Shown: in pieces, positions 2,561 to 45,248 of the stretch | How positions within the stretch are numbered: the first letter of the stretch is position 1 | How the letters are laid out: every line of letters begins with the position of its first letter | From: Myxococcales bacterium | Lineage (GTDB): Bacteria; Myxococcota; Myxococcia; Myxococcales; 40CM-4-68-19 | DNA length: 53,368 bases | Assembly (NCBI GenBank): GCA_036488495.1 | Contig: DASXHM010000350.1 | Coordinates: forward strand, 1 to 53,368 | Direction of reading: 5' to 3' | Position numbers and translations under genes: made by a program | The notes under the pieces: model-generated | The model's database searches: none | Seen by the model: the letters and a program-made list of their open reading frames with translations, nothing else | What the model was told of the DNA's origin: nothing

Positions 2561-4285
2561 ATGGCGGAGACCCACGACAACGTCGGCCGCTTCGCGCTGA
2601 TGCGCGCGATTCCGCGCAGGGTCTCCTGGCTCGACCTCGCCGTCCTCTCCTTTCTCGGGCTCTGCGCCTACGGCGTGGCGCGGCTCGCGGGCGAATGGCG
2701 CGCGCCCCTGCGCGAAGCGGTGGTCATCGACCAGAGCCTTCGCTCGCTGCCGCTCTACACCTTCTTCTCGCTCTGCCGAGGCCTGGCCGCCTTCGCGCTG
2801 AGCTTCTTCTTCACCCTCGTGTACGGCTACGTCGCGGCGCGGGTCCGCCTCGCCGACCGGGTGCTTTTGCCGCTACTCGATATCCTACAATCAATACCGG
2901 TTCTCGGCTTCATGCCCGGCGTCGTCCTGGCCATGGCGGCGCTCTTCCCGCATTCAAACGCCGGGCTCGAGCTGGCCGCCATCCTGATGATCTTCACCGG
3001 CCAAGTCTGGAACATGACCTTCAGCTTTTATCACTCGCTCCGCGCCATTCCGCCGGAGCTGATGGAGGCCGCGTCCATCTACCGCTTCGGCTGGTGGCGA
3101 AGATTCACCCGCATCGAATTGCCCTACTCCACCGTCGGCCTGGTCTGGAACGGCATGATGAGCATGGCCGGCGGCTGGTTCTTCCTCACCATCAACGAAG
3201 CCTTCCGGTTGGGCGACCGCGACTTCCGCCTCCCCGGCGTCGGCGCGTACATGAGCGTCGCCATCGATTCGGGCAACGGAAAGGCGCAGTTCGCGGCTGT
3301 GGTGGCGATGATCGTGATGATCGTCGTCGTCGATCAGCTCTTCTGGCGGCCGCTCGTGGCCTGGAGCGAGAAGTTCAAGTTCGAGGACGTGGGCGGCGGC
3401 GAGCCGGCGTCGTCGTGGGTGCTGGATCTGCTCCGGCGGTCGGAGTTGTTTCGCGGGTTCGGACGGTGGCTCGCGGGGCTGTTCAAGCGCGCCCCGAAGC
3501 CGGCCATGAGAGCCAGCGCACCGGCCAGCGCTCGAAAGACCTCGCCCGGTTTCTTCGTCGTCGCAGGCGTGCTCGGCATCGCCTGCGTTTGGGGCACCTT
3601 GCGGCTCGTCGAATTGCTCTCACACCTGCATGCATCCGCATGGCGGGACATCGCCACCGCCTCGGGCCTGACGCTCGTGCGCACCAGCGCCGCGGTGGTG
3701 CTCGGCTCCATCTGGACCATCCCCGCCGGCATCTACATCGGCACCCATCCCAAGGCGAGCCGCTTGCTGCAGCCCATCGTCCAGATCGCTGCTTCATTCC
3801 CCGCGCCGATGCTCTTTCCGGTCGTGCTCGCGGGCCTCGCGGCGCTGCGCGTCTCGCTCGGATTCGGGTCCATCGCGCTGATGGTGCTGGGCACGCAGTG
3901 GTACATCCTCTTCAACGTCATCGCCGGAGCCATGTCCATCCCGCACGACCTCGTCGAGGCCGCGCAGATCTTCCGCTACGGCCGGCCGCAGCGCTGGCGC
4001 CTGTTGATGTTGCCGGGCGTGTTTCCCACCCTCGTCACCGGCTGGGTGACGGCCGCCGGCGGCGCTTGGAACGCGAGCATCGTCGCCGAGTACGTCCATG
4101 AAGGGTCGCACGTCCTCAAGACGCACGGGCTGGGCGCGCTCATCTCCACCGCCGCGGAACAAGGCGACCTGCCGCTGCTCGCCGCGGGCGTGTTGGCGAT
4201 GGCCGGCCTCGTCGTCCTGGTCAATCGGCTTTTTTGGAAACAGCTTTATACGCTCGCGGAGCGGAAGTATTCGCTCGGGCGATAG
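2561..4285 (+). CDS. ABC transporter permease, fused double permease (nitrate/sulfonate/bicarbonate-type)
   Basis: 574 aa with about 12 hydrophobic segments arranged as two repeated halves, each with a binding-protein-dependent transport inner-membrane signature. An ABC ATPase follows directly. Confidence 0.85.
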   Translation: MAETHDNVGRFALMRAIPRRVSWLDLAVLSFLGLCAYGVARLAGEWRAPLREAVVIDQSLRSLPLYTFFSLCRGLAAFALSFFFTLVYGYVAARVRLADRVLLPLLDILQSIPVLGFMPGVVLAMAALFPHSNAGLELAAILMIFTGQVWNMTFSFYHSLRAIPPELMEAASIYRFGWWRRFTRIELPYSTVGLVWNGMMSMAGGWFFLTINEAFRLGDRDFRLPGVGAYMSVAIDSGNGKAQFAAVVAMIVMIVVVDQLFWRPLVAWSEKFKFEDVGGGEPASSWVLDLLRRSELFRGFGRWLAGLFKRAPKPAMRASAPASARKTSPGFFVVAGVLGIACVWGTLRLVELLSHLHASAWRDIATASGLTLVRTSAAVVLGSIWTIPAGIYIGTHPKASRLLQPIVQIAASFPAPMLFPVVLAGLAALRVSLGFGSIALMVLGTQWYILFNVIAGAMSIPHDLVEAAQIFRYGRPQRWRLLMLPGVFPTLVTGWVTAAGGAWNASIVAEYVHEGSHVLKTHGLGALISTAAEQGDLPLLAAGVLAMAGLVVLVNRLFWKQLYTLAERKYSLGR

Positions 4286-4294
4286 GAGACTCTC

Positions 4295-5575
4295 GTGGAC
4301 GTCATCTGCGACCTGCAAAAGATCGACAAAGATTTCGCGCTGCCGAGCGGCGGGACGGTGCGGGTCTTGGAGAACGTCTCGTTGGAAGTGCGCGACCGCG
4401 AGCTAATCGCGGTGCTCGGCCCGTCCGGCTGCGGCAAGAGCACGCTGATGCGCATCCTCGCCGGGCTCATCCATCCCGACGGCGGTGAGGTGCAGTACCG
4501 CGGAACGAAGCTGGACGGCATCAACCCCGGCGTCGCCATCGTCTTCCAAGGCGCTGCTCTTTATCCCTGGCTGACCGTTCGGCAGAACATCGTCGAGCCG
4601 TTGAAAGCGCGCGGGCTCGAGGAGGCGAAGGCCCAGGAAACGGCCATGCGCGTCATTCGAGTCGTCGGCCTGGCGGGTTTCGAGGAAGCCTTCCCGCGCG
4701 AATTGTCCGGCGGAATGAAGCAGCGGGTGGGCATCGCGCGCGCGCTCGCGGTGGAGCCGGAGATCCTCTGCATGGACGAGCCGTTCAGCCAGGTGGACGC
4801 GCTCACCGCCGAGACCTTGCGCAGTGAAGTGGTGCGCTTCTGGGACAACAAGGATTCCAATCCGAAGACCATCTTCATGGTCAGCCACGACGTGAAGGAA
4901 GTGGTGTTCATGGCGACGCGCATCGTGGTGCTGGCGGCGCGTCCGGGGCGCATCCGGCGGATTTTCGAAAACAAGCTTCCTTATCCGCGCGATTATCGAT
5001 CGCCGGCGTTCGGACGGCTGGTCGATCAAATCCACGCGGTCATCACCGAAACCGAGATTCCCGACCTGCCGGAGACTGCCGCTGCCGCTACCGCCTGGGA
5101 GCCGCTTCCGCCGGTTTCATTCACCGAAGTGATCGGCCTTCTGGAAATGCTCGACAACCGCGGCGGCCGCGAGAACGTGTTCGGGCTGGCCGAGGATCTC
5201 GGCCGCGAGTTCGGGCACGTCCTCGGTGTCGTGAAAGCCGCCGAATTGATCGACCTTGTCGACACGCCCAAGCAGGAAGTGGTCATCACCGACATCGGCC
5301 GCGCTCTGTTGAAAGCGAGCGTCGCCGACCGGAAGACGATGTTCCGCGAGCGCGCGCTGCAGCTTCGGATCATCGCGGAAGTGTACGAGCAGATCCACCG
5401 CGCCGACGGCAAGCTGGACGAGGACGTGGTGCTCTCCACGGCCGCGCTCCGGCTGCCGTACGAAGATCCGGAACGGCTCTTGAAGACCCTGGTCGGCTGG
5501 GCCCGCAACGCCGACTTGTTCGACTACGACCCCGAACGCCACCTGCTGTTCATCGATCAGCCCGCTGCGCAATAG
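4295..5575 (+). CDS. ABC transporter ATP-binding protein (NitT/TauT type) with C-terminal AAA-associated domain
   Basis: Walker A 'GPSGCGKST', signature 'LSGGMKQR', Walker B 'ILCMDEPFS'. A ~170-aa C-terminal extension is typical of this subfamily. Confidence 0.9.
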   Translation: MDVICDLQKIDKDFALPSGGTVRVLENVSLEVRDRELIAVLGPSGCGKSTLMRILAGLIHPDGGEVQYRGTKLDGINPGVAIVFQGAALYPWLTVRQNIVEPLKARGLEEAKAQETAMRVIRVVGLAGFEEAFPRELSGGMKQRVGIARALAVEPEILCMDEPFSQVDALTAETLRSEVVRFWDNKDSNPKTIFMVSHDVKEVVFMATRIVVLAARPGRIRRIFENKLPYPRDYRSPAFGRLVDQIHAVITETEIPDLPETAAAATAWEPLPPVSFTEVIGLLEMLDNRGGRENVFGLAEDLGREFGHVLGVVKAAELIDLVDTPKQEVVITDIGRALLKASVADRKTMFRERALQLRIIAEVYEQIHRADGKLDEDVVLSTAALRLPYEDPERLLKTLVGWARNADLFDYDPERHLLFIDQPAAQ

Positions 5576-15280: not shown

Positions 15281-15874
15281 ATGAACGTTCCAACTGCGAG
15301 GTGCATGGAAACCGATCGCTCAGCAACCATCGCTAATGCCGTGGTCGCTCCGGGCAAATCATTTCAAAGCATGCACGGCTCGCATGCGCAACGCATCGTC
15401 GTGATCGCGCAGAGGGTCCTAGGCAGCCACGACGACGCCGAGGACGTGTCACAGGACGTACTGCTCGACGTGTGGCGGCGGGGCGACGACTTCGATCCGG
15501 AGCGCGGCAGCGTGTCCGCGTGGGTGAGCAGTATCGCACGCCACCGCGCCATCGATCGGCTGCGGCAGCGCGAGCGGGACAAGAGCCTGGCAGAGGACGC
15601 CGCACGGGACGCGCTGACGACCACGAATGCTCCGGGCGTCGAACCGAACTGCGACCGGGGCAGCATACGCCGCGCCATGGCGGCTCTTCCCGCCCCGCTC
15701 TGCCAGGCGCTAGAGCTTGCCTACTTCGAAGGCCTCACACACCGCGAGATCGCCACGCGCACATGCACACCGCTCGGCACGGTGAAGACGCGCCTTCGCA
15801 TGGCGTTGGCGCGCCTGCAGGAAGCCCTGGGGCCGCCCGCGGTCACGAGCGAGCACGTGGAAGACGAATCGTGA
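15281..15874 (+). CDS. ECF-type RNA polymerase sigma-70 factor
   Basis: Region 2 'DAEDVSQDVLLDVWRR...SAWVSSIARHRAIDRLR'. Region 4 'LELAYFEGLTHREIATRTCTPLGTVKTRLRMA'. The start could instead be the ATG at 15305. Confidence 0.75.
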   Translation: MNVPTARCMETDRSATIANAVVAPGKSFQSMHGSHAQRIVVIAQRVLGSHDDAEDVSQDVLLDVWRRGDDFDPERGSVSAWVSSIARHRAIDRLRQRERDKSLAEDAARDALTTTNAPGVEPNCDRGSIRRAMAALPAPLCQALELAYFEGLTHREIATRTCTPLGTVKTRLRMALARLQEALGPPAVTSEHVEDES

Positions 15875-36606: not shown

Positions 36607-38043
36607 GTGAGCTTCGAGCATTGGGCCCAAACAACGCGAGGGGCGGCGCTGGCTATTATCAGAGGCAATGCCGTCGTAGACGCGAACGATCGGTTTCGCG
36701 AGCTCGAAGGCGGGCCTTGGCGCTGGACCTCCGGCCCTCACGCGAAAATCCGGTACCAGACCTTGACCGAGCTGGTCGTCGGCGAAGCAGACGGGCATGC
36801 CACGGCCCCCTCGCGCTTCGAGCGGCCGGGCGTGACGCTCGAGCTGCGGCTCGAACGCATGGGCGGCGAGGTTGTGGCCATGCTCCTCGACGTCACCCAG
36901 GAGATCGCCCGCCAGCGCGTCCTCCAGCAAGAGCGCGAAGCGTTCTTCCACGAGGAGCGCATGCACGCCATGGGCAGGCTCGCCTCCGGCGTGGCGCACG
37001 ACTTGAACCACGCGCTCAACATCGTCGCGCTCCGGGTGGCGACGTTGCGCGCGGACCCGGCGCTCGACCGATCGAAGCGGACGTTGGATTCCTTGGGCCG
37101 GATGGTCTCCGAGGCGGCGCGGGTGGTGGCCCGGCTGCAGGACCTCGCGCGCAAGCGCCGCGACAAGCCTTTGGAGCCGCTCGATCTCTCCGCAGTGCTG
37201 ACCGGCGCGGTGGAGATGGCGCGCAGCGAGGCGGATCGGGCGGACGTGCGCATCGAGGCGGACGTGCCCCCATTGCCGCTCGTGCGTGGAACCGCCGCGG
37301 AGATCCTGCACGTCTTCGGCAGCCTGCTCGCCCACGCACGGGAGCAGATGCCGGAAGGCGGCGTCATCCGGGTGCGCGCGCGCGAGGATCACGGGCGCGT
37401 CTTGGTGACCATTCGCGACAGCGGCCCCGGCGTCGAGCAGGAAGATCTCGCGCGCCTGTTCGATCCGTTCTCCGGCGTGGCGAAGGAATCCGCGCTCGGC
37501 CTCTCCGTCGCCTGGGGCGTGATGCAGCGGCTCGGCGGACAGATCTCCGCCAGCAGCCAACCCGGAGCGGGCACTTCCTTCAGCCTCATCTTCCCGCTCG
37601 CCGCTCCGCTCCCCCGCCGCGAGCAGCCGGCGCCGAGGCCGACGCAGCGGGTTCGCAAGCGCATCCTCCTGGTCGACGACGAAACCGACAACCTGGACGT
37701 GCTCCGCGAAGTCCTCCAGCTCGAAGGCCACGACGTGGAAGTGGCGCGAAGCGGGCCGGAAGCTCTGGCGCGCATCGATCGCGGCGAGCGCTACGACCTG
37801 ATGCTCTGCGACGTGGGCATGCCGGAGATGAGCGGCTGGCAGGTGGCGCGCGAGCTCGAGGGGCGCAAGCCGCGCACGCCGATCTGGATGCTGACCGGGT
37901 GGGCGAACGAGATTGGCGAATCCGATCCCAGGCTCCGGATGGTGCGCGGCGTGCTCGCGAAGCCGCTCGATCTGGACCGGCTGCGATCGCTGCTCGCGAC
38001 TCCGCAGCCGCAGGACGCACCACCCGAGCCGGTCACCGCCTGA
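36607..38043 (+). CDS. hybrid sensor histidine kinase with C-terminal receiver
   Basis: H-box 'LASGVAHDLNHALN'. 'DSGPGV' and 'LGLSVAWG' G-boxes. Receiver 'ILLVDDETDN...DLMLCDVGMPEMSG'. GTG start. Confidence 0.88.
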   Translation: MSFEHWAQTTRGAALAIIRGNAVVDANDRFRELEGGPWRWTSGPHAKIRYQTLTELVVGEADGHATAPSRFERPGVTLELRLERMGGEVVAMLLDVTQEIARQRVLQQEREAFFHEERMHAMGRLASGVAHDLNHALNIVALRVATLRADPALDRSKRTLDSLGRMVSEAARVVARLQDLARKRRDKPLEPLDLSAVLTGAVEMARSEADRADVRIEADVPPLPLVRGTAAEILHVFGSLLAHAREQMPEGGVIRVRAREDHGRVLVTIRDSGPGVEQEDLARLFDPFSGVAKESALGLSVAWGVMQRLGGQISASSQPGAGTSFSLIFPLAAPLPRREQPAPRPTQRVRKRILLVDDETDNLDVLREVLQLEGHDVEVARSGPEALARIDRGERYDLMLCDVGMPEMSGWQVARELEGRKPRTPIWMLTGWANEIGESDPRLRMVRGVLAKPLDLDRLRSLLATPQPQDAPPEPVTA

Positions 38044-38050
38044 CGACGGC

Positions 38051-38320
38051 CTAAGGGTCGATCTGCGCCGTCTCGACCAGGTATTCGGCGCCCAACCGAT
38101 CGAGCACCGGAACCAGCCTGCGCTCGTGCGCCGACGCCGCCACGATGATGTCGCCGCGGCCCTTCCTGCAGAGCAGGAAGACATGACCTTGCGCCAGCGC
38201 TTCCTTCTCGACCTCGATCTTGATGCGGATGCCGCGGCGAGGAGCGCGCTGCACGGCGCGGCGCTCGCCGTCCACCGAGACGATCCAGAGCTTGCAGGAG
38301 CCGAGGGAATCCAAAAGCAC
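38051..38320 (-). CDS. small hypothetical protein (89 aa)
   Basis: High GC3 over the whole ORF. It lies 93 nt downstream of lipoprotein 38414..39328 on the same strand. No family recognised. Confidence 0.5.
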   Translation of the reverse strand: MLLDSLGSCKLWIVSVDGERRAVQRAPRRGIRIKIEVEKEALAQGHVFLLCRKGRGDIIVAASAHERRLVPVLDRLGAEYLVETAQIDP

Positions 38321-38413
38321 GCATTCACCACTGTGCCGGAGGAATGTGTCAGCCAGATTGCGCCGGTTCGCGGCGGATTGCTACCCCCGGGGGCGGTCGC
38401 GTCGTGCGCGCGA

Positions 38414-39328
38414 TCACAACCCCGGGCACGAGGCTGCATTCCCGAGCAGGCAAGGCTTCACCCCGTTGCAGGCCGCGGTCGCCGCCAACGGATCGTCGAT
38501 GAAGGAGAGGCATGCGTTCGCATCCCAGCACTGGTGCGCCTCGGCGCTGACGAAGGGGCCGCAGCGCACGTGGAAGGAATCCTTGCCTGCGCCGGCAGCC
38601 GTGAACTGGGTGGTCACCTCGGTCGTGCAGCCGTTGCCTCCGGCCACCGCGAACGCGAACTGGCCATGCCCGTCGAGGAAGCCTTCGTAGCTGTAGTCGA
38701 AGCTGGGGACTCCGAACCCCTCGCCCTCCGTCAGGTCGAGCGAGATGGTCCGCGGGTCGTCGCCGAGGTCGTAGAAGATCCGCATGGGGAACTTCGGATC
38801 GGTGGCCTTGGCGATGCCGAGCTGCACCGACCGCTCGAAGTGGAGCGTGATCCGGCCGGTTCCGCTCTTCGCCTGGGCGCCGAAGAAGGTGCCTTCCACC
38901 ACCGCGAGAAAGGCCCCGCCGGGCGGCGCTTCCGAGATGCTGTAGTCCCAGCGCCAGGGCGTTCCGGTCGCGTCCACCTGGCGGACCATCTGCACCTGCG
39001 TCTGAAATCCGGGGTGGCTCTGATCGGGGAACGGGCCCCAGGTGCGCGAGTCGGTGTCGCGCGCGGTGGGCGGCTGCGCGCGGATGGTGTCGACGAGCTC
39101 GAGCAGCCCGCTCACGCCTTGGTTGATGTCGTCGCCGGTCTGCTTCGCGCTCTGGAAGAACGCTGCCGGACCGAGCGCGCACGACGGCTGCGCGGTCAAC
39201 GCGCTGTTCGGCACCTGCACCTGCAGCGCTTCCTTCTGCGGAATGGCCTCGAGGAAGGCGACGTCCTCGTTGGAGAGGTTGCCGCAGGCGCACAGGGCGA
39301 CGAAAAGAAAGAGCGCGCTAGAACGCAT
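38414..39328 (-). CDS. lipoprotein, paralogue of 42138..43112
   Basis: 'MRSSALFLFVALCAC' signal plus lipobox. It shares colinear blocks with the other lipoprotein (FF..., S.TWGP, W.W, G.AF..V..G, G.G..T..F, FAV, CW). The start overlaps the caspase-like gene by 11 nt. Confidence 0.72.
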   Translation of the reverse strand: MRSSALFLFVALCACGNLSNEDVAFLEAIPQKEALQVQVPNSALTAQPSCALGPAAFFQSAKQTGDDINQGVSGLLELVDTIRAQPPTARDTDSRTWGPFPDQSHPGFQTQVQMVRQVDATGTPWRWDYSISEAPPGGAFLAVVEGTFFGAQAKSGTGRITLHFERSVQLGIAKATDPKFPMRIFYDLGDDPRTISLDLTEGEGFGVPSFDYSYEGFLDGHGQFAFAVAGGNGCTTEVTTQFTAAGAGKDSFHVRCGPFVSAEAHQCWDANACLSFIDDPLAATAACNGVKPCLLGNAASCPGL

Positions 39329-40889
39329 ATTCGACTCCGGCGGCGAATTCGGCGTAGCCCAGGTTCTGCGCGCCGTCGACGTTGTAGAAGAGGTAGTTCA
39401 GCCGGCCGCGCACGAGCGCCGAAAACCGATTCGAAAACTGCCAGCTCAACATCGCCTGCAGCCCGGGCGTGAAGGTGAAGAAGTTCTGATTCTGCAACTC
39501 CGAGCGGTCGGGGAAGCTGCGCGCGAGGTAGATGAAGGCGACCCGCGCCCCGACCGACGCGGTGAAAGTGTCGGTCAGGTCGAAATCGCGCCACAAGGAC
39601 GCGCCGCCGCTCACCTCGAAGAAGCGCTCGTCGATGGGGGCGACGCCCGGCAGACGCAGCGTGGCCGAGCCGCCGCCAAGCGAAAGATCGAGACCCCAGG
39701 CGAGCGAATGCCCCAGGTCGTCGCGCGCGGCCGTCTCCAGACCCGCGAGCGCTGCCGGCGGAAACAAGCCGTTCCGCGCCGCGCTGTCGAAGAAGAATTG
39801 ACCGCCGCCGGAGAGCCGCAGGCTGTAGCGGGGGCCGGTCACACCCTTCTGCGGATCGTCGCTGAGCGGCCGCCGCACCAGCCGATTGTCGGCGACCTCG
39901 ACCGGCTGCTCGTCGACGGTGAAGCTGCCGATCAAGAGGCCGTCGCCGTCGCGCTTCTTGACCGTGTAGTCGCCGCGGGCGAGCGCGATGCGCCGCGAGC
40001 CGCCCCTCGCCTTGGCCACCTCCGCCACCGCCCGCCGCGAGTTGTCGAGCACGACGTAGACGCCTTCGTCGGAGGCGGGAAAGAGGAGCACGCCGCGCGG
40101 CGACAGATCGGTCAGCACCACGTCGCCCGCGCCGCCCAGGTCGTAGAGGTAGACGGGATGCTGCGCGCCGGCGCGCGTCTCCGCGGTTTCGCCGACCGTC
40201 CGCGCGTACGCGTAGGCATAGGCTTCCGCCAAGGTGACCTTGCCGTCGCCGCTCGCGTCCGCGTCGCCCAACAGCCCGCTCGCGAGATAATGGGTGAAGA
40301 ACGACGCGGAGAGCTCGTCCGACTCCTGCGACTCCTCGTCGGCGCTGGAAGAAGCGATCAGCACCAGGCCGCGCGGGCGGGTGGCCGCGGCCTGCGCCTT
40401 CTGCACGTCGAACGCCGGGGCGGTGCGAACGCCTTTGGCGCGAACGATGGCGCCCGATTGGCAGCTATCGATGAGGCCGATGCGCACGTCCGCAGGCGCG
40501 TCCTTGAGCAGATCGCGCAGCTCGGTCATGGGCAGGAGCGTGTCGCCCAGGCGCAGCTCGCCGTCCTTGGCGTGGCCGGAGTAGTAGACGATCAGCACCG
40601 TCTCTTCGCCGTTGGCTTTGGCCGCCGCGATGGGCGCTTTCAGCGAGGCCAGGGCCGCCAGCACCTCGTCGGCGGAAGCGCCGGTCAAGAGGCGCGCGTC
40701 CTCGGGGCGCACGCCTCCCAGCCTGACCAGGATGGAATGGATCCGCCGCGCGTCGCGCTCGGCATAGCGCAACGGGCGCGTCCCCACTCCGCCCTTGGCG
40801 TCGCCGACGATGAGCGCGAAGCGCCGCTCCGCCAGCGCGGGAAACGCGGCCATCATCGCCGCGACGCAGAGGGCGAAGCCGGTCTTCAC
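39318..40889 (-). CDS. exported caspase-family (Peptidase_C14) protein with C-terminal outer-membrane beta-barrel-like domain
   Basis: GTG 40889 gives the signal peptide 'VKTGFALCVAAMMAAFPALA'. Catalytic His is in 'LIVYYSGHAKDG' and Cys in 'GLIDSCQSGAIV'. The C-terminal ~190 aa show alternating-hydrophobic beta strands ending 'AAGVEYAF'. Confidence 0.8.
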   Translation of the reverse strand: MKTGFALCVAAMMAAFPALAERRFALIVGDAKGGVGTRPLRYAERDARRIHSILVRLGGVRPEDARLLTGASADEVLAALASLKAPIAAAKANGEETVLIVYYSGHAKDGELRLGDTLLPMTELRDLLKDAPADVRIGLIDSCQSGAIVRAKGVRTAPAFDVQKAQAAATRPRGLVLIASSSADEESQESDELSASFFTHYLASGLLGDADASGDGKVTLAEAYAYAYARTVGETAETRAGAQHPVYLYDLGGAGDVVLTDLSPRGVLLFPASDEGVYVVLDNSRRAVAEVAKARGGSRRIALARGDYTVKKRDGDGLLIGSFTVDEQPVEVADNRLVRRPLSDDPQKGVTGPRYSLRLSGGGQFFFDSAARNGLFPPAALAGLETAARDDLGHSLAWGLDLSLGGGSATLRLPGVAPIDERFFEVSGGASLWRDFDLTDTFTASVGARVAFIYLARSFPDRSELQNQNFFTFTPGLQAMLSWQFSNRFSALVRGRLNYLFYNVDGAQNLGYAEFAAGVEYAF

Positions 40890-41566
40890 CTGCGCAGCAC
40901 GAGCTCGCTGACGTCCGCATCGCGAGGCGCGTCGCTCGCGGCGTGCAGCTTTTCGGCGTCGACCTGTTCGTCGCTCAAGACCACCAGCACGCGCGCTTCG
41001 CGCGCGGCGCCGGTCCATTCGAACGCCTGCGGCAAGGGACCGTCCACCGCCGGACCGTCGTAGAGCACGCTCGATTCGGAAGGCTCGAGCAGCACCGCGG
41101 CCGCGTACTTTCTGCCGCCCGGGTGCAAGGACAGCCGCAGCTTTGCGTCCTGCGCGATCGGCTCGCCGGCGGAGAGCGCTCGGGTACCGCTCGCGTCGTT
41201 GACGAAGATCTGCGCCGGAGCGCCGCCCTTCGAGCGCAGGCCCATGTCGCGGCTCGAAGGCCGGAGCACGAAGGCGCCTGCCACCACCAAGATTGCCGCG
41301 GCGGCAGCGAGGCCGCTCGTCCAGGGCGCGAACCTCGGCCGCTGCCTTCGGGCCGCGAGCTTCTCCGCCACCCCGGCCGCGAACGCCGCGAACGGCACCT
41401 CGCGCGCGAGCGCTTCGCGCTCACCCTGCAGCTCTTGGACGGTGCGCTGACACCGGCCGCAAGCTTCCAGATGCGCCTCTAGCTGCGCCCGTTCATCGGC
41501 CTCGAGCTCTCCGGCGAAGAAGCGCCGCACCCGCATCGAAGAACAACCCTCCGCGGGCACGGTCAT
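40886..41566 (-). CDS. anti-sigma factor (zf-HC2, single TM, periplasmic domain)
   Basis: 'HLEACGRCQRTVQEL' zinc-binding motif. TM 'LAAAAAILVVAGAFVL'. ATGA overlap with the sigma stop (41563-41566) and GTGA overlap with the next gene (40886-40889). Confidence 0.8.
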   Translation of the reverse strand: MTVPAEGCSSMRVRRFFAGELEADERAQLEAHLEACGRCQRTVQELQGEREALAREVPFAAFAAGVAEKLAARRQRPRFAPWTSGLAAAAAILVVAGAFVLRPSSRDMGLRSKGGAPAQIFVNDASGTRALSAGEPIAQDAKLRLSLHPGGRKYAAAVLLEPSESSVLYDGPAVDGPLPQAFEWTGAAREARVLVVLSDEQVDAEKLHAASDAPRDADVSELVLRR

Positions 41567-42141
41567 GGCTCGTCTCCTTCCGGCAGCGAGAGCTCCGGCA
41601 ACGCCGCGCGGAGCGCGCCCCGCGAGCAGGCGAGAAACTCGCGCAGCCGCTTGCGCACCGTCGGCAAGCTGCGCCCGAGCGCAACGCCGATCTCGGCCTG
41701 GGAGAGCTCGTCGACGAAATACAGCACGGCAACCTCCTGGGCTTCTTCCGGCGCCGACGAGAGCAGCGCGCGCACCAATTCCCGCTTGTCCGGCGGTTCG
41801 AACGAGGGCTTGCGAACCTTCGCGGTCTGCACCGCCTCGTCCCGCCACTTCGCCCGGCCCGACCTGAGCAGGTTCAAACAGTGGTGGGTGGCGATGCGCA
41901 GGATCCAGGTGCTGGGCGAAGCCTGCGCGCGAAACGTCGGGATTGCTTCCAACACCTTCACGAAGACGTCCTGCAGGGCATCCTTGGCTTCCGCGTCGTC
42001 GCGCAAGAGGTAGCGGCAGCGGGCGTACACCGCCGCCGCGTACTTCTCGTACAGCTCTGCGAGGAGGCTTTCGGGGAGGCCCGGCATCTCTTGCCGGGCG
42101 CTCCTCCCTCCTTGCAGGACGCGGAGGCCGCTGCCGGTCAC
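41563..42141 (-). CDS. ECF-type RNA polymerase sigma-70 factor
   Basis: Region 2 'DAEAKDALQDVFVKVLE...STWILRIATHHCLNLLR'. Region 4 'VLYFVDELSQAEIGVALGRSLPTVRKRL'. The GTG start overlaps the upstream lipoprotein stop (GTGA at 42138-42141). Confidence 0.88.
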   Translation of the reverse strand: MTGSGLRVLQGGRSARQEMPGLPESLLAELYEKYAAAVYARCRYLLRDDAEAKDALQDVFVKVLEAIPTFRAQASPSTWILRIATHHCLNLLRSGRAKWRDEAVQTAKVRKPSFEPPDKRELVRALLSSAPEEAQEVAVLYFVDELSQAEIGVALGRSLPTVRKRLREFLACSRGALRAALPELSLPEGDEP

Positions 42142-43112
42142 TGAACGGTGAGCGTGCTGAAGACGGCGGTCGAGAACGCGCAGGACGTGACCGACCCGGT
42201 GGTGGCGCCGCCGAACGGAGGCGGTGCGGCAAGCGCGTTGCTGGTGAAGTAGACCTGCGCGAACGGCGCCGGTCCCCAGCAGTCGGAGTCCTGCAGGCTG
42301 AAGGCAGAGGCGGTGCCCTGTACGTCGGCGCGACCGCTGCCGTCGTTCTTCCAGCGCGAGTGGACCGAGACGTCGTTGCCGGTGGTGGTGTTGTGGACCG
42401 CGAACTCCAGATCGCCGCCGCCGGTCGTGTCGTCCGCGAACTTGTAGGCGATGTTGTCGAGCTGGGTGCTGACGGTTCCGTCCTTCGCGCCGGTGTAGGT
42501 GACGGCGAGCTGCGAAGGGCCCACGTTCGAGTACGAAGTGACGTTCAGCTTGCCGGTCGCGTCGTGCGTGCCGTCCAAGCTCTGGGCAGCGTCAAAGTCC
42601 ATGGTGAAGCTGCCCGAGCCGTGGTGCGGGGTCCCCGACGGCTTGGCGACGCCGGAAGCCACCGTCACGAACGCGCTCCCCGGCCGCGACTTCGCCTGCG
42701 CCGACAGCGTCCAGTCGAAGCTTTCGCCGTCCGCGTCGCGGCTGACCACCAGCTCGTAGGTGTTGAAGTCGAGCGCGGAAGAGCCCGGGCCCCAGGTGCA
42801 GCTCGTCTCGGTGCAACTGGTCGGCTCGTTCGAGGCGACGTCGGCAAGCACGTCGAGGAAGATCTTCACCGGCGCGTTGAAGGTCGCGGCGACCGAGACG
42901 GTGAGGGCGAAGAACGGGTCGGACGAAGTGGCGTCGGGCGCTGCGGCGAGCGCCTTCGAGGGAGCGTTGGCCGCGGTCGCGGAGCCGTCAGGGCTGTTCA
43001 TGCCGACGGTGCTCTTGTTGGGAAGCGAATCGCGCGCCTGGTCCTTGAACGCGGCGGACGATCCGCCGCAGGCGGCCATCAAAGTCATTGCGGCAAGAAG
43101 TAGCTTCTTCAC
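42138..43112 (-). CDS. lipoprotein, paralogue of 38414..39328; first gene of the ECF/caspase operon
   Basis: GTG 43112 is preceded by AAGGAGAAGACC. 'VKKLLLAAMTLMAAC' signal plus lipobox. Colinear similarity to 38414..39328. Confidence 0.72.
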   Translation of the reverse strand: MKKLLLAAMTLMAACGGSSAAFKDQARDSLPNKSTVGMNSPDGSATAANAPSKALAAAPDATSSDPFFALTVSVAATFNAPVKIFLDVLADVASNEPTSCTETSCTWGPGSSALDFNTYELVVSRDADGESFDWTLSAQAKSRPGSAFVTVASGVAKPSGTPHHGSGSFTMDFDAAQSLDGTHDATGKLNVTSYSNVGPSQLAVTYTGAKDGTVSTQLDNIAYKFADDTTGGGDLEFAVHNTTTGNDVSVHSRWKNDGSGRADVQGTASAFSLQDSDCWGPAPFAQVYFTSNALAAPPPFGGATTGSVTSCAFSTAVFSTLTVQ

Positions 43113-43256
43113 GGTCTTCTCCTTGGCGGGAGCCGGGTTGCTCCCGAAGAGTTCGTGCGATCTGGACACAGCCCCGGCCGAAACTTGGAAACAGGAAGAA
43201 AACGCCCGCTGTTCCCGCGCAGTTGAGCGGTCCTTTGTGCGACACTCGCCTTCACT

Positions 43257-43925: not shown

Positions 43926-45248
43926 TCATCTAGTCGCGACGGCCGGCGCCCTCGCGGCGCGCGACACGTAGGCGACAGCGCCGAGCGTCAGTGACGACGC
44001 GGCGGCGAGCAGCATGAGCGCCTGGAACACGGCGCCCCAACCGAAATGCTTGGAAACGCCCGCGACGAGCGCGCCCTGCGCGACCGCGCCCACCGAGCCG
44101 CAGCCGTTGATGAACCCCGCCACCGTCCCGGCGGAGCCCGGGCCGCCGAGGTCCTGGGCGGCCACTCCCGAGATGAGCGCATCCGGGCCGAACAGGCAAA
44201 ACCCCACCAGCGCGATGGCGGCGAAGTTCATCGCCATCCCCATCGGGGCGACCCTGCCGTAAAGGAGCAGCGCGAGCGCCAGTGCGATGGTGCACAGGGC
44301 AGCGATGGCCCCACGGCGACCCGGAAAGAGCTTGTCGGAGATCCACCCGACGGCGATGGCGCCGAAGATTCCCCCGAACTGGAAGCCGGTCGAAACGTAG
44401 GCGGCGGTGTCGCGGGCGTAGCCGAGGTTGCGCTCTAGATAGTACGGCAGCCAGAAGTCCAGGCAGTAGCGGATGAGCTTCATCCCGAAGTAGGCGACCC
44501 CAAGCAGCCACACCACCGGATTGCGCAGAATTTCCCCAGCCTTGGCCTCGCCACCGCCGCCACACATCTCAGACGATTTCTCACCACACATCTCAGACGA
44601 TTTCCCACCACACATCTCAGACGATTTCGAAGCGCCGTCCCGACCCCGACACATCTCAGACGATTTCGGACCGGCATCGGCCGGCTCCCCCCCCGGTCCC
44701 TCGCGCAAGAACGCGAGCACGAGCACCCCGACCAGCGCCACCCACACCGCCGGCAAGAAAAACGACGACCGCCACCCATGGTGCGCAAGGAGCCACGCGC
44801 ACAGCGCCGTCGCCAAAAGCGGGCCGACCTGGAAGCACGTCGACCAGAAGCCCATCACCGCGCCTCGTTCGCGCGGCCCGTACCAGCCGGCCATCGCCTT
44901 GACGTTCCCAGGCCACCCCGTCGCCTGCACGAAGCCGTTCAACCCGAAGAAGAGCGCGAACAGCCCGGCGCTCGACGACCCGCCAAAGGCCGCGATCAGA
45001 AGAGCCGAGGCGATCATCCCCAACCCGACCAGCCGCCGCGAGCCGATCCGGTCCGCGAGCCACCCGCCCGCGAACTGCCCCACCGCGTAGGTGGCGAGAA
45101 ACCCGGTGTCGATGGCGGCAAGACCGGCCGTCCCGATGCCGAGCTCGCGCTCGAGGGTGGCCTTGACCACCGGGAAGTTCTTCCTGCCGAAGTAGTAGGT
45201 TGCGTACGAGAGCCAGGTGAGTCCGAAGGCGCGGACCCTCGGCTTCAC
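43926..45248 (-). CDS. MFS transporter (organophosphate:Pi antiporter / GlpT-UhpC-like) with a repeat insertion in the central loop
   Basis: 12 TM segments. 'FGLTWLSYATYYFGRKNF' N-terminus and 'GWLADRIGSRR' loop motif. The GTG start overlaps the DUF1223 stop (GTGA at 45245-45248). Confidence 0.88.
   Translation of the reverse strand: MKPRVRAFGLTWLSYATYYFGRKNFPVVKATLERELGIGTAGLAAIDTGFLATYAVGQFAGGWLADRIGSRRLVGLGMIASALLIAAFGGSSSAGLFALFFGLNGFVQATGWPGNVKAMAGWYGPRERGAVMGFWSTCFQVGPLLATALCAWLLAHHGWRSSFFLPAVWVALVGVLVLAFLREGPGGEPADAGPKSSEMCRGRDGASKSSEMCGGKSSEMCGEKSSEMCGGGGEAKAGEILRNPVVWLLGVAYFGMKLIRYCLDFWLPYYLERNLGYARDTAAYVSTGFQFGGIFGAIAVGWISDKLFPGRRGAIAALCTIALALALLLYGRVAPMGMAMNFAAIALVGFCLFGPDALISGVAAQDLGGPGSAGTVAGFINGCGSVGAVAQGALVAGVSKHFGWGAVFQALMLLAAASSLTLGAVAYVSRAARAPAVATR
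44561..44667 (-). repeat. four copies of a ~20-nt repeat (core AAATCGTCTGAGA on the minus strand); three are tandem with a 24-nt period, all in frame within the MFS gene
   Basis: The plus strand shows 'cacacatctcagacgatttc' at 44561, 44585 and 44609, and 'acacatctcagacgatttc' at 44649. These encode 'KSSEMCGG'-type octapeptides. Confidence 0.85.

Follow-up and report, generated by a model that had tools for sequence, protein, structure and literature searches.

A sigma factor, anti-sigma factor and caspase-fold protease operon with paralogous lipoproteins in a soil myxobacterium: a probable envelope signalling unit

Bacterial homologues of caspases are abundant, and almost none of them has a known substrate outside the CRISPR and gasdermin contexts. 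The question of what such proteases act upon is raised by a 53,368-nucleotide stretch of DNA (the window) from a soil myxobacterium (Myxococcales bacterium, contig DASXHM010000350.1), in which the gene of a caspase-fold protease with a signal peptide directly follows the genes of a sigma factor of the extracytoplasmic-function (ECF) type and an anti-sigma factor, the three being bracketed by two lipoprotein genes. Is the protease a part of the sigma switch, or is it one of the products that the switch controls? The gene comparisons and structure predictions presented here suggest that the locus is probably a self-contained, autoregulated envelope signalling operon, with the adjacent anti-sigma factor as the candidate substrate of the protease.

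Organization of the operon

The locus consists of five tightly packed open reading frames (ORFs) on the minus strand, listed below in the order of transcription.

42138 to 43112, minus strand: lipoprotein 1, 324 amino acids (aa), first gene of the operon, GTG start, lipobox Cys15
41563 to 42141, minus strand: ECF (group 4) sigma factor, 192 aa, matching Sigma70_r2, Sigma70_r4_2 and TIGR02937
40886 to 41566, minus strand: predicted single-pass zinc-binding anti-sigma (ZAS) factor, 226 aa, matching zf-HC2 and NF052375
39318 to 40889, minus strand: predicted exported caspase-fold protease, 523 aa, identified from Peptidase_C14, AlphaFold2 and Foldseek
38414 to 39328, minus strand: lipoprotein 2, 304 aa, lipobox Cys15, identified from alignments and AlphaFold2

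The four junctions were read directly from the sequence. The lipoprotein 1 and sigma factor genes overlap in GTGA (42138-42141), the sigma factor and anti-sigma factor genes in ATGA (41563-41566), and the anti-sigma factor and caspase genes in GTGA (40886-40889); the overlap of the caspase and lipoprotein 2 genes is 11 nt long (39318-39328). A preliminary description of this DNA had taken the genes for one coupled minus-strand unit of a lipoprotein, an ECF sigma factor, a zinc-finger anti-sigma factor, a caspase with a signal peptide and a second lipoprotein. All five ORFs stand where it had placed them, the four junctions read as it had given them, and its domain identities are borne out by profile searches, in which Sigma70_r2, Sigma70_r4_2, zf-HC2 and Peptidase_C14 are all matched above their cut-offs.

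Conservation of the gene neighbourhood

Related loci from 34 species-level genomes and 80 metagenome contigs were compared, the genes being located with profiles made from the window proteins. The genome contigs were scanned with one protein as the query, which yielded mainly close relatives (besides one match at 46% and a weak one at 24%), and the distant context was supplied by the metagenome scan together with individual look-ups. Close homologues of the caspase number more than 1,600 in metagenome-assembled genomes of soil Myxococcales, and a search of the full library gave 2,348 representative clusters (50% identity) with E up to 1e-30.

The sigma factor, anti-sigma factor and caspase genes are contiguous, in that order, in every sufficiently long related locus (∼110), down to a caspase identity of 38%. 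Down to the same identity, a lipoprotein of the same family directly follows the caspase in all but one (L035) of the sufficiently long loci, and the upstream lipoprotein is kept to ∼41-48% identity. Close relatives alone prove little, because they also share the flanking HIT, MFS, hybrid kinase and oxidoreductase genes; the distant loci are decisive. The cultured Melittangium boletus DSM 14713 (CP022163, 7085797-7100777) and Vitiosangium sp. have the whole set of five genes between different flanks, with 4-nt overlaps at the sigma/anti-sigma and anti-sigma/caspase junctions; by position, lipoprotein 1 is orthologous to the upstream lipoprotein of Melittangium. A link to sigma factor genes is also seen in five caspases at greater distance, three of which have unrelated C-terminal halves; in four of the five a sigma factor gene and a gene of anti-sigma size lie directly upstream, and in the fifth the sigma factor gene is divergently transcribed. 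This linkage is found in 7 of 7 distant members looked up individually and in all of the ∼18 distant metagenome loci that reach far enough upstream. In a set of 89 non-redundant loci, the sequence provides an overlapping start codon at 83 of the sigma/anti-sigma junctions and at 74 of the anti-sigma/caspase junctions.

The preliminary description had made its proposal depend on whether this gene order recurs in relatives, and it does so, even where the flanks are unrelated. Chance does not come near to explaining the arrangement. The view that the genes are merely adjacent, without any functional link, could draw upon the flanks shared by the close relatives, as the conservation there is partly plain synteny; it is effectively refuted by the persistence of the block between different flanks and at protein identities of 35-47%, with start and stop codons that mostly overlap. 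As judged from these comparisons, the conserved core is the triad of sigma factor, anti-sigma factor and caspase, and the lipoproteins are a clade-level addition.

Some loci of the comparison have features of their own. L100 (Ga0272442_10000249) and L035 (ERZ27252234 k141_1377012) are apparently the same ∼90.8-kb genome region from two sources. The region holds two paralogous modules of sigma factor, anti-sigma factor and caspase-barrel protein, of the P0133 and P0137 types; one is accompanied by the lipoproteins, and large MopE/HYDIN-Ig repeat proteins come after the other. Such paralogous modules fit the multiple copies reported for Myxococcus xanthus. The gene following the caspase in L118 (7431-7943) encodes a Ser/Thr protein kinase fragment, and that in L119 (6608-8383) a 591-aa protein with weak DUF1838/DUF6087 matches; neither is a lipoprotein of this family.

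Promoter and transcription

An ECF-type promoter candidate lies ∼75 to 100 nt upstream of the start of lipoprotein 1.

43187 to 43215, minus strand: candidate ECF-type promoter, GGAAC-N17-TGTTTCC, with the −35 box at 43215-43211 and the −10 box at 43193-43187

The boxes of the motif have the form usual for promoters of ECF sigma factors, AAC in the −35 box and CGT in the −10 box. Within the window the motif is unique at up to 1 mismatch, against an expectation of ∼0.35 chance matches; since at least one match arose in 27 of 100 shuffles, the uniqueness within the window is by itself weak support. In 17 of the related loci the exact pattern GGAAC-N17-YGTTTCC occurs once each, always on the strand of the operon and at a distance of ∼100 nt from the first lipoprotein gene, on its upstream side; the remainder of ∼0.9 Mb of related-locus sequence has no further copy. 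When one or two mismatches are allowed, the motif is present in ∼27 of 44 distinct upstream regions, with the boxes kept and the spacer varying. Upstream of the sigma factor gene in the distant loci that have no upstream lipoprotein, no score rises above the shuffled background, as expected if the promoter specificity has diverged.

Inside the cluster no sigma-70-type promoter-like site was found, and the terminator-like sites show no excess (3 found, ∼3.2 by chance). The possibility that separate promoters split the genes, which the preliminary description had named as a reason to abandon the unit, is thus countered by the lack of such sites within the cluster and by the ECF-type candidate upstream of the first gene. 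A single ECF-type promoter appears to serve all five genes, and the presence of this candidate suggests that the operon is probably autoregulated.

The caspase-fold protease

The structure prediction and alignments divide the caspase protein as follows.

aa 1-20, minus strand: signal peptide, a helix in the AlphaFold2 model
aa 21-242 (nt 40164-40829), minus strand: C14 domain, from Pfam and AlphaFold2
aa 246-341 (nt 39867-40154), minus strand: beta-sandwich, from AlphaFold2
aa 354-523 (nt 39321-39830), minus strand: predicted 8-stranded OmpA-like barrel, from AlphaFold2 and Foldseek
40572 to 40574, minus strand: codon of the catalytic His106 (YYSGH), conserved in the alignments
40461 to 40463, minus strand: codon of the catalytic Cys143 (DSCQSG), conserved in the alignments

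The match to Peptidase_C14 (PF00656) has an E value of 1.5e-11 and a score of 44.8 bits, against a gathering threshold of 21.4. The NCBIfam model NF047832 (caspase, EACC1-associated) gives 61.1 bits, below its curated cut-off of 140, and no EACC1 partner is encoded nearby. The AlphaFold2 model, built with 41 diverse homologues, has a mean predicted local distance difference test score (pLDDT) of 91.4. Upon comparison with the PDB by Foldseek, its N-terminal part matches caspase-6, MALT1 and metacaspase-9 with a probability of 1.0. The best counterparts of the C-terminal part are the OmpA transmembrane domain, NspA, OmpX, Ail and OmpW, at target template-modelling (TM) scores of 0.64-0.77 (target-normalised; NspA 0.77, OmpA transmembrane domain ∼0.75). 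The beta-barrel-like C-terminus suspected earlier is thereby recovered as a predicted fold of eight long, antiparallel strands (aa 354-522) with pLDDT > 90. The last residues of the protein are ...EYAF, and F, L, W, I or V closes the sequence in 28 of 40 homologues; the eight antiparallel strands and the hydrophobic or aromatic terminal residue are both features of OmpA/OmpX-like barrels.

The integrity of the active site was judged from an alignment of 151 sequences, comprising the window protein and 150 cluster representatives, with gaps excluded from the counts. His106 is present in 148/148 and Cys143 in 147/149 sequences, within the motifs SGH and D[SA]CxSG, and both residues are invariant in a second alignment (A1). 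The dyad proposed at the outset therefore aligns with the catalytic residues of the C14 family and is essentially invariant. Asp46 and Asp141 are also invariant, at the N-D-A and D-S-C positions, which we take to line the S1 pocket for basic residues in metacaspase structures. Asp46 aligns with the INDA motif of Metacaspase-1 (PDB 7qp0). Orthocaspases are reported to cut after Arg or Lys (PMC6426788). The conserved acidic positions suggest a probable preference of the protease for basic residues. As predicted from its domains, its modelled structure and these comparisons, the protein is a catalytically intact cysteine protease of the metacaspase/orthocaspase type, exported by its signal peptide.

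Both ends of an eight-stranded OmpA-like barrel face the periplasm, and the short turns of the predicted barrel lie on the side of its ends. Because of this, the caspase domain and the beta-sandwich are predicted to be periplasmic, with the barrel tethering them to the outer membrane at its inner face.

The sigma factor and the anti-sigma factor

The sigma factor matches Sigma70_r2 (3.2e-17, 62.5 bits, cut-off 24), Sigma70_r4_2 (1.5e-6, 28.2 bits, cut-off 25.7) and the NCBIfam model of the ECF superfamily, TIGR02937 (76.4 bits, cut-off 42.9). It has the sigma-2 and sigma-4 regions only, which places it in group 4, and no NCBIfam subfamily reaches its cut-off with it. Caspase neighbours are not mentioned in the main text of the ECF reclassification (PMC7826278).

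The anti-sigma factor matches zf-HC2 (8.8e-7, 29.4 bits, cut-off 22.2) and the anti-sigma model NF052375 (1e-10). The cytoplasmic zinc motif C8-x23-H32-x3-C36-x2-C39 is visible in its translation. Hydropathy and the alignment of 54 non-redundant homologues reveal a single hydrophobic segment, a transmembrane helix at ∼aa 84-101. The H-x3-C-x2-C motif in the N-terminal domain, followed by one transmembrane helix, is the arrangement of class I ZAS factors, and the protein is predicted to be the membrane inhibitor of the adjacent sigma factor.

The periplasmic part comprises ∼125 residues. The helix is followed by a variable acidic/proline-rich linker, then by the motif R-x-K-G(-G), and then by a domain of ∼110 residues (∼aa 115-226). 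Among eight anti-sigma factors scanned from related loci, five have near-full-length matches to DUF4384 (PF14326), at 13-24.5 bits and E of 3e-5 to 0.09, all below the threshold of 27 bits. The anti-sigma factor of the window has no DUF4384 match in Pfam at E up to 1; its periplasmic domain aligns with the homologues that do match and is homologous to theirs. The domain is accordingly called DUF4384-like, a term of resemblance and not of family membership. A homology of this domain to the beta-sandwich of the caspase protein, by which the two proteins might dock homotypically, was considered and rejected, the profile-profile probability being 2%.

A basic motif common to the anti-sigma factor and the protease

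The motif that separates the linker from the periplasmic domain of the anti-sigma factor has a likeness in the protease.

41222 to 41236, minus strand: juxtamembrane motif R111-S-K-G-G115 of the anti-sigma factor, a candidate site-1 cleavage site
40431 to 40442, minus strand: loop motif R150-A-K-G153 of the caspase, a candidate autoprocessing site

The pair was found by an unbiased comparison of the profile of the anti-sigma periplasmic part with those of three parts of the caspase protein, in which the sole alignment with the catalytic domain pairs the anti-sigma motif with protease residues 148-155. R-x-K-G is located 7-27 residues past the transmembrane helix in 47 of the 54 non-redundant anti-sigma factors, and the rest keep x-K-G/S/A. 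The protease loop T-R-x-K-G-G is near-invariant among the cluster representatives, with R150 in 113/149, K152 in 145/149 and G153 in 146/149 of them. It lies 7-10 residues past the catalytic Cys, where the inter-subunit loop begins (aa 152-168, pLDDT < 50), the sole disordered loop of the model. The loop after the Cys is the usual place of autoprocessing in caspases and metacaspases.

The only locus in which the protease motif lacks its Arg is L119 (A-L-K-G-G), and the anti-sigma factor of that locus lacks it too (G-I-K-G), a single suggestive case of matched change between the two motifs. The anti-sigma factor gene of L119 is located at 4219-5004, and its caspase is P0233.

Proposed mechanism

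These observations lead us to propose, tentatively and with slightly less than even confidence, that the caspase starts the degradation of the anti-sigma factor with a cut at or near R-x-K-G-G, that an RseP-type enzyme finishes it, and that the sigma factor then drives its own operon. Upon a signal, the outer-membrane-tethered protease would act as a dedicated site-1 protease and cut the exposed, membrane-adjacent linker of the anti-sigma factor at or near the conserved motif. An RseP-type site-2 protease would then complete the removal of the anti-sigma factor, and the freed sigma factor would transcribe the operon from the GGAAC-N17-YGTTTCC promoter. The lipoproteins might relay or gate the signal, like the lipoprotein adaptors of periplasmic proteases, which is the speculative step of the scheme. 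The site-1 proposal is made because the triad stays contiguous through divergence, the active site is intact with a probable basic preference, the motif is shared, and two precedents exist in DdvA and the craspase.

Several points weigh against it. Cleavage of the anti-sigma factor is deduced only indirectly, and the orientation of the barrel follows from the general topology of OmpA-like barrels. Known site-1 proteases, DegS and Prc among them, are usually encoded outside the sigma factor operon. The profile match that pairs the two motifs is not significant (P 0.025, probability 2%), and the shared stretch is only 4-5 residues long. The anti-sigma motif could be structural, since it lies directly against strand 1 of the periplasmic domain. 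Eight distinct motif pairs (ten loci) are scored as lacking the Arg only in the anti-sigma factor, some of these being artefacts of pattern matching. The DUF4384 assignment is below the Pfam threshold, with the window protein itself unmatched. Finally, the lipoproteins are missing from the most distant modules, so that their role is not a core one.

The main rival explanation reverses the direction of control and makes the protease an output of the switch. The anti-sigma factor would sense some other envelope signal through its DUF4384-like domain, and the sigma factor would induce the caspase and the lipoproteins, which in turn would remodel or degrade periplasmic or outer-membrane proteins in quality control, developmental lysis or turnover of the cell surface. 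This is possible, though we consider it unlikely. The co-induction of the protease with the sigma factor from an apparently single ECF-type promoter is typical of regulon members, and the variable C-termini of the distant homologues would suit effectors with different targets. The authors of a 2012 survey also speculated on a role of myxobacterial metacaspases in developmental cell death (PMC3501461). What this explanation leaves unaccounted for is the contiguity of the triad, mostly with overlapping start codons, amid changing surroundings, and the occurrence of a common basic motif in the anti-sigma linker and the protease loop; both count in favour of the site-1 proposal.

The lipoproteins

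Both flanking proteins have a signal peptide and a lipobox Cys (...LMAAC|GG and ...ALCAC|GN), and Cys15 is invariant or nearly so in alignments of 43 and 39 sequences. The two are related to each other (BLASTP 2e-10, 24% identity over 286 aa), and each is closer to the lipoprotein at the same position in Melittangium than to its partner. The comparison thus identifies them, on sequence grounds, as ancient paralogues; the duplication would be old and the positions fixed since before the split from Archangiaceae.

Members of the family share the lipid-modified Cys, the motifs WGP, GAGR and ECWD, and the conserved Cys267 and Cys301, and in each of the two this Cys is followed by a long N-terminal tether of poor conservation. 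They match no family of Pfam or NCBIfam, and no name for the family appears in any source searched. The AlphaFold2 model of lipoprotein 2, a confident one (pLDDT 86), shows a long helix followed by ∼14 strands, and a Foldseek search returned no significant PDB match for this fold (best E 0.08, TM up to 0.26).

The conservation of the downstream lipoprotein invites another explanation, in which the caspase acts on the lipoproteins as its substrates or as pro-forms. It would mature or release one or both of them, and the sigma factor and anti-sigma factor would only set the timing. A family lipoprotein follows the caspase in all but one of the sampled loci down to 38% caspase identity, the paralogues have kept their positions since before the Archangiaceae split, and the long, poorly conserved tethers would be consistent with it. 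Nevertheless, it is improbable, as the lipoprotein alignments contain no conserved basic motif comparable to R-x-K-G-G, and more distant modules keep the triad without these lipoproteins.

When the site-1 proposal is extended to all five proteins, it describes a pathway across the envelope, in which an outer-membrane orthocaspase is the site-1 protease of a DUF4384-type anti-sigma factor at R-x-K-G-G and is gated by duplicated lipoproteins of a new fold. In this complete form the scheme is doubtful.

Comparison with known systems

RseA is cut by DegS and then by RseP, and outer-membrane lipoproteins can serve as adaptors that steer periplasmic proteases, as in NlpI with Prc and LbcA with CtpA. 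The order proposed here, a periplasmic site-1 cut followed by an intramembrane cut and the release of an ECF sigma factor, is like that of RseA proteolysis. It differs in the proposed site-1 enzyme, which is a caspase-fold cysteine protease, predicted to be anchored in the outer membrane and encoded in the sigma factor operon; the lipoproteins differ from NlpI and LbcA in being of an unassigned family.

A studied precedent is DdvS/DdvA of M. xanthus, in which the periplasmic caspase-fold domain of DdvA is proposed to cleave itself before RseP acts (PMC11506125). The likeness consists in an ECF sigma factor held by a single-pass zinc-binding anti-sigma factor and in a periplasmic caspase-fold domain with His and Cys (PMC11506125). 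In DdvA, however, the anti-sigma factor itself carries, by fusion, a caspase-fold TPR-CHAT region (∼900 residues) that acts in the dimer, whereas at the present locus the C14 protease is separate and, by prediction, tethered to the outer membrane. The anti-sigma factor of the window, 226 aa long and with no CHAT or TPR match, is not of the DdvA type. DdvS has a CBASS/CRISPR island under its control; the window locus shows no defence genes. The earlier claim of an exported caspase wired to an ECF switch is therefore supported as regards the module, and is not without precedent.

A second parallel is the type III-E craspase, in which the caspase-fold Csx29 cleaves Csx30, a binder of an ECF sigma factor; some C-terminal domains of Csx30 are DUF4384 (bioRxiv 10.1101/2022.08.17.504292). 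There, as proposed here, a caspase-fold protease cuts a sigma-binding partner in a flexible linker (bioRxiv 10.1101/2022.08.17.504292; PMC10028731). The craspase is cytoplasmic, RNA-guided and CRISPR-linked and has a TPR-CHAT protease, and none of these features is found at the window locus. Other associations of caspases with ECF sigma factors are ECF54 with CHAT proteins (PMC8999054) and the EACC2-caspase systems (PMC8195603).

These precedents raise the possibility of an anti-phage or abortive-infection role, in which envelope damage by a phage would activate the caspase and a defensive transcription, as in DdvA/DdvS. Caspase-fold proteases do meet ECF sigma factors in defence, as in DdvA/DdvS, the type III-E craspase and the EACC2-caspase systems, but the evidence at the locus itself makes this role very improbable. 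None of the five proteins has a match in PADLOC-DB 2.0 at E up to 0.01. There are no defence genes nearby, the neighbours being ordinary housekeeping genes (HIT, MFS, DUF1223, hybrid kinase and oxidoreductase), and the promoter motif occurs in the window only at the operon. Furthermore, the locus is syntenic and vertically conserved across a family of soil myxobacteria, and not patchy in the manner of defence islands.

The occurrence of a metacaspase gene and a sigma-70-family gene in one predicted operon was noted by bioinformatic survey in 2012 (Asplund-Samuelsson et al., PMC3501461), for 4 of 5 metacaspases of M. xanthus and also in Anaeromyxobacter, Haliangium, Sorangium, Ralstonia and Fibrobacter. 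The window locus, with a C14 gene and a sigma-70-family gene in one predicted operon, falls into the class so described. The survey recorded the co-occurrence only, and searches for terms in its main text found no anti-sigma factor, export signal, barrel, lipoprotein paralogues, promoter or mechanism. The literature that could be searched, an incomplete library, yielded no functional or experimental study of these genes as a set. Of the preliminary claim of an uncharacterised module, the lack of a functional study in that literature stands, and the operon type itself had already been noted in 2012. The locus is a member of a noted, uncharacterised class and not a categorically new system. What is added here is the predicted anchoring in the outer membrane, the DUF4384-like sensor domain, the common basic motif, the lipoprotein paralogues of unmatched fold, the promoter and the extent of conservation.

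The value of the locus lies in what it offers for experiment: the neighbouring anti-sigma factor as a candidate substrate, a motif at which it might be cut, a candidate promoter for use in a reporter, and cultured hosts with the same five genes. If the site-1 proposal is true, an outer-membrane-anchored cysteine protease would join the short list of site-1 proteases of ECF signalling, and DdvA, the craspase and these operons would come under a common theme. If the complete scheme with the gating lipoproteins holds, caspase-fold proteolysis of sigma factor inhibitors would be a general bacterial principle, realised in periplasmic (here), fused (DdvA) and cytoplasmic (craspase) form, with DUF4384 as a recurring caspase-recognition module, and the multiple sigma-linked metacaspases of myxobacteria would gain a function. 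If the protease is only an output, the locus would be an ordinary ECF regulon with an unusual protease.

Other features of the window

Downstream of the operon lies a short ORF, which the preliminary description had listed as a possible sixth member.

38051 to 38320, minus strand: 89-aa ORF, with coding-like GC content at the third codon position (GC3) and a full-length counterpart in L036

The GC contents at its three codon positions (GC1/2/3 = 0.71/0.42/0.87) follow the pattern of the real genes of the operon, and the closest relative, L036, has a full-length counterpart with 67% amino acid identity at the same place (3999-4262). The counterpart is absent from all other related loci, and no family of Pfam, NCBIfam or other source is matched. 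The ORF sits in ∼300 bp without a counterpart in the other relatives, between the lipoprotein 2 gene and the convergent kinase gene. An interpretation as a non-gene, based on the absence of a match in 34 loci, was dropped in view of the full-length match in L036 and the coding-like GC3. It is probably a real, lineage-specific small gene; being absent from the loci other than L036, it is an add-on outside the conserved module, so that its reality as a gene is upheld and its membership is not.

The convergent gene, on the plus strand at 36607-38043, encodes a hybrid histidine kinase/response regulator. Most close relatives have this gene in synteny and the L015 lineage lacks it, and hence it is not in the module. 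A second ECF sigma factor gene is located at 15338-15871 on the plus strand (Sigma70_r2 1e-18, Sigma70_r4_2 8e-12), with no caspase and no lipoprotein of this family nearby. The MFS_1 transporter gene at 43926-45248 (minus strand) contains a 24-nt tandem repeat at 44560-44628 (2.9 copies, 97% match), which encodes KSSEMCG(G/E) repeats in the central loop, an unusual cysteine-containing insertion.

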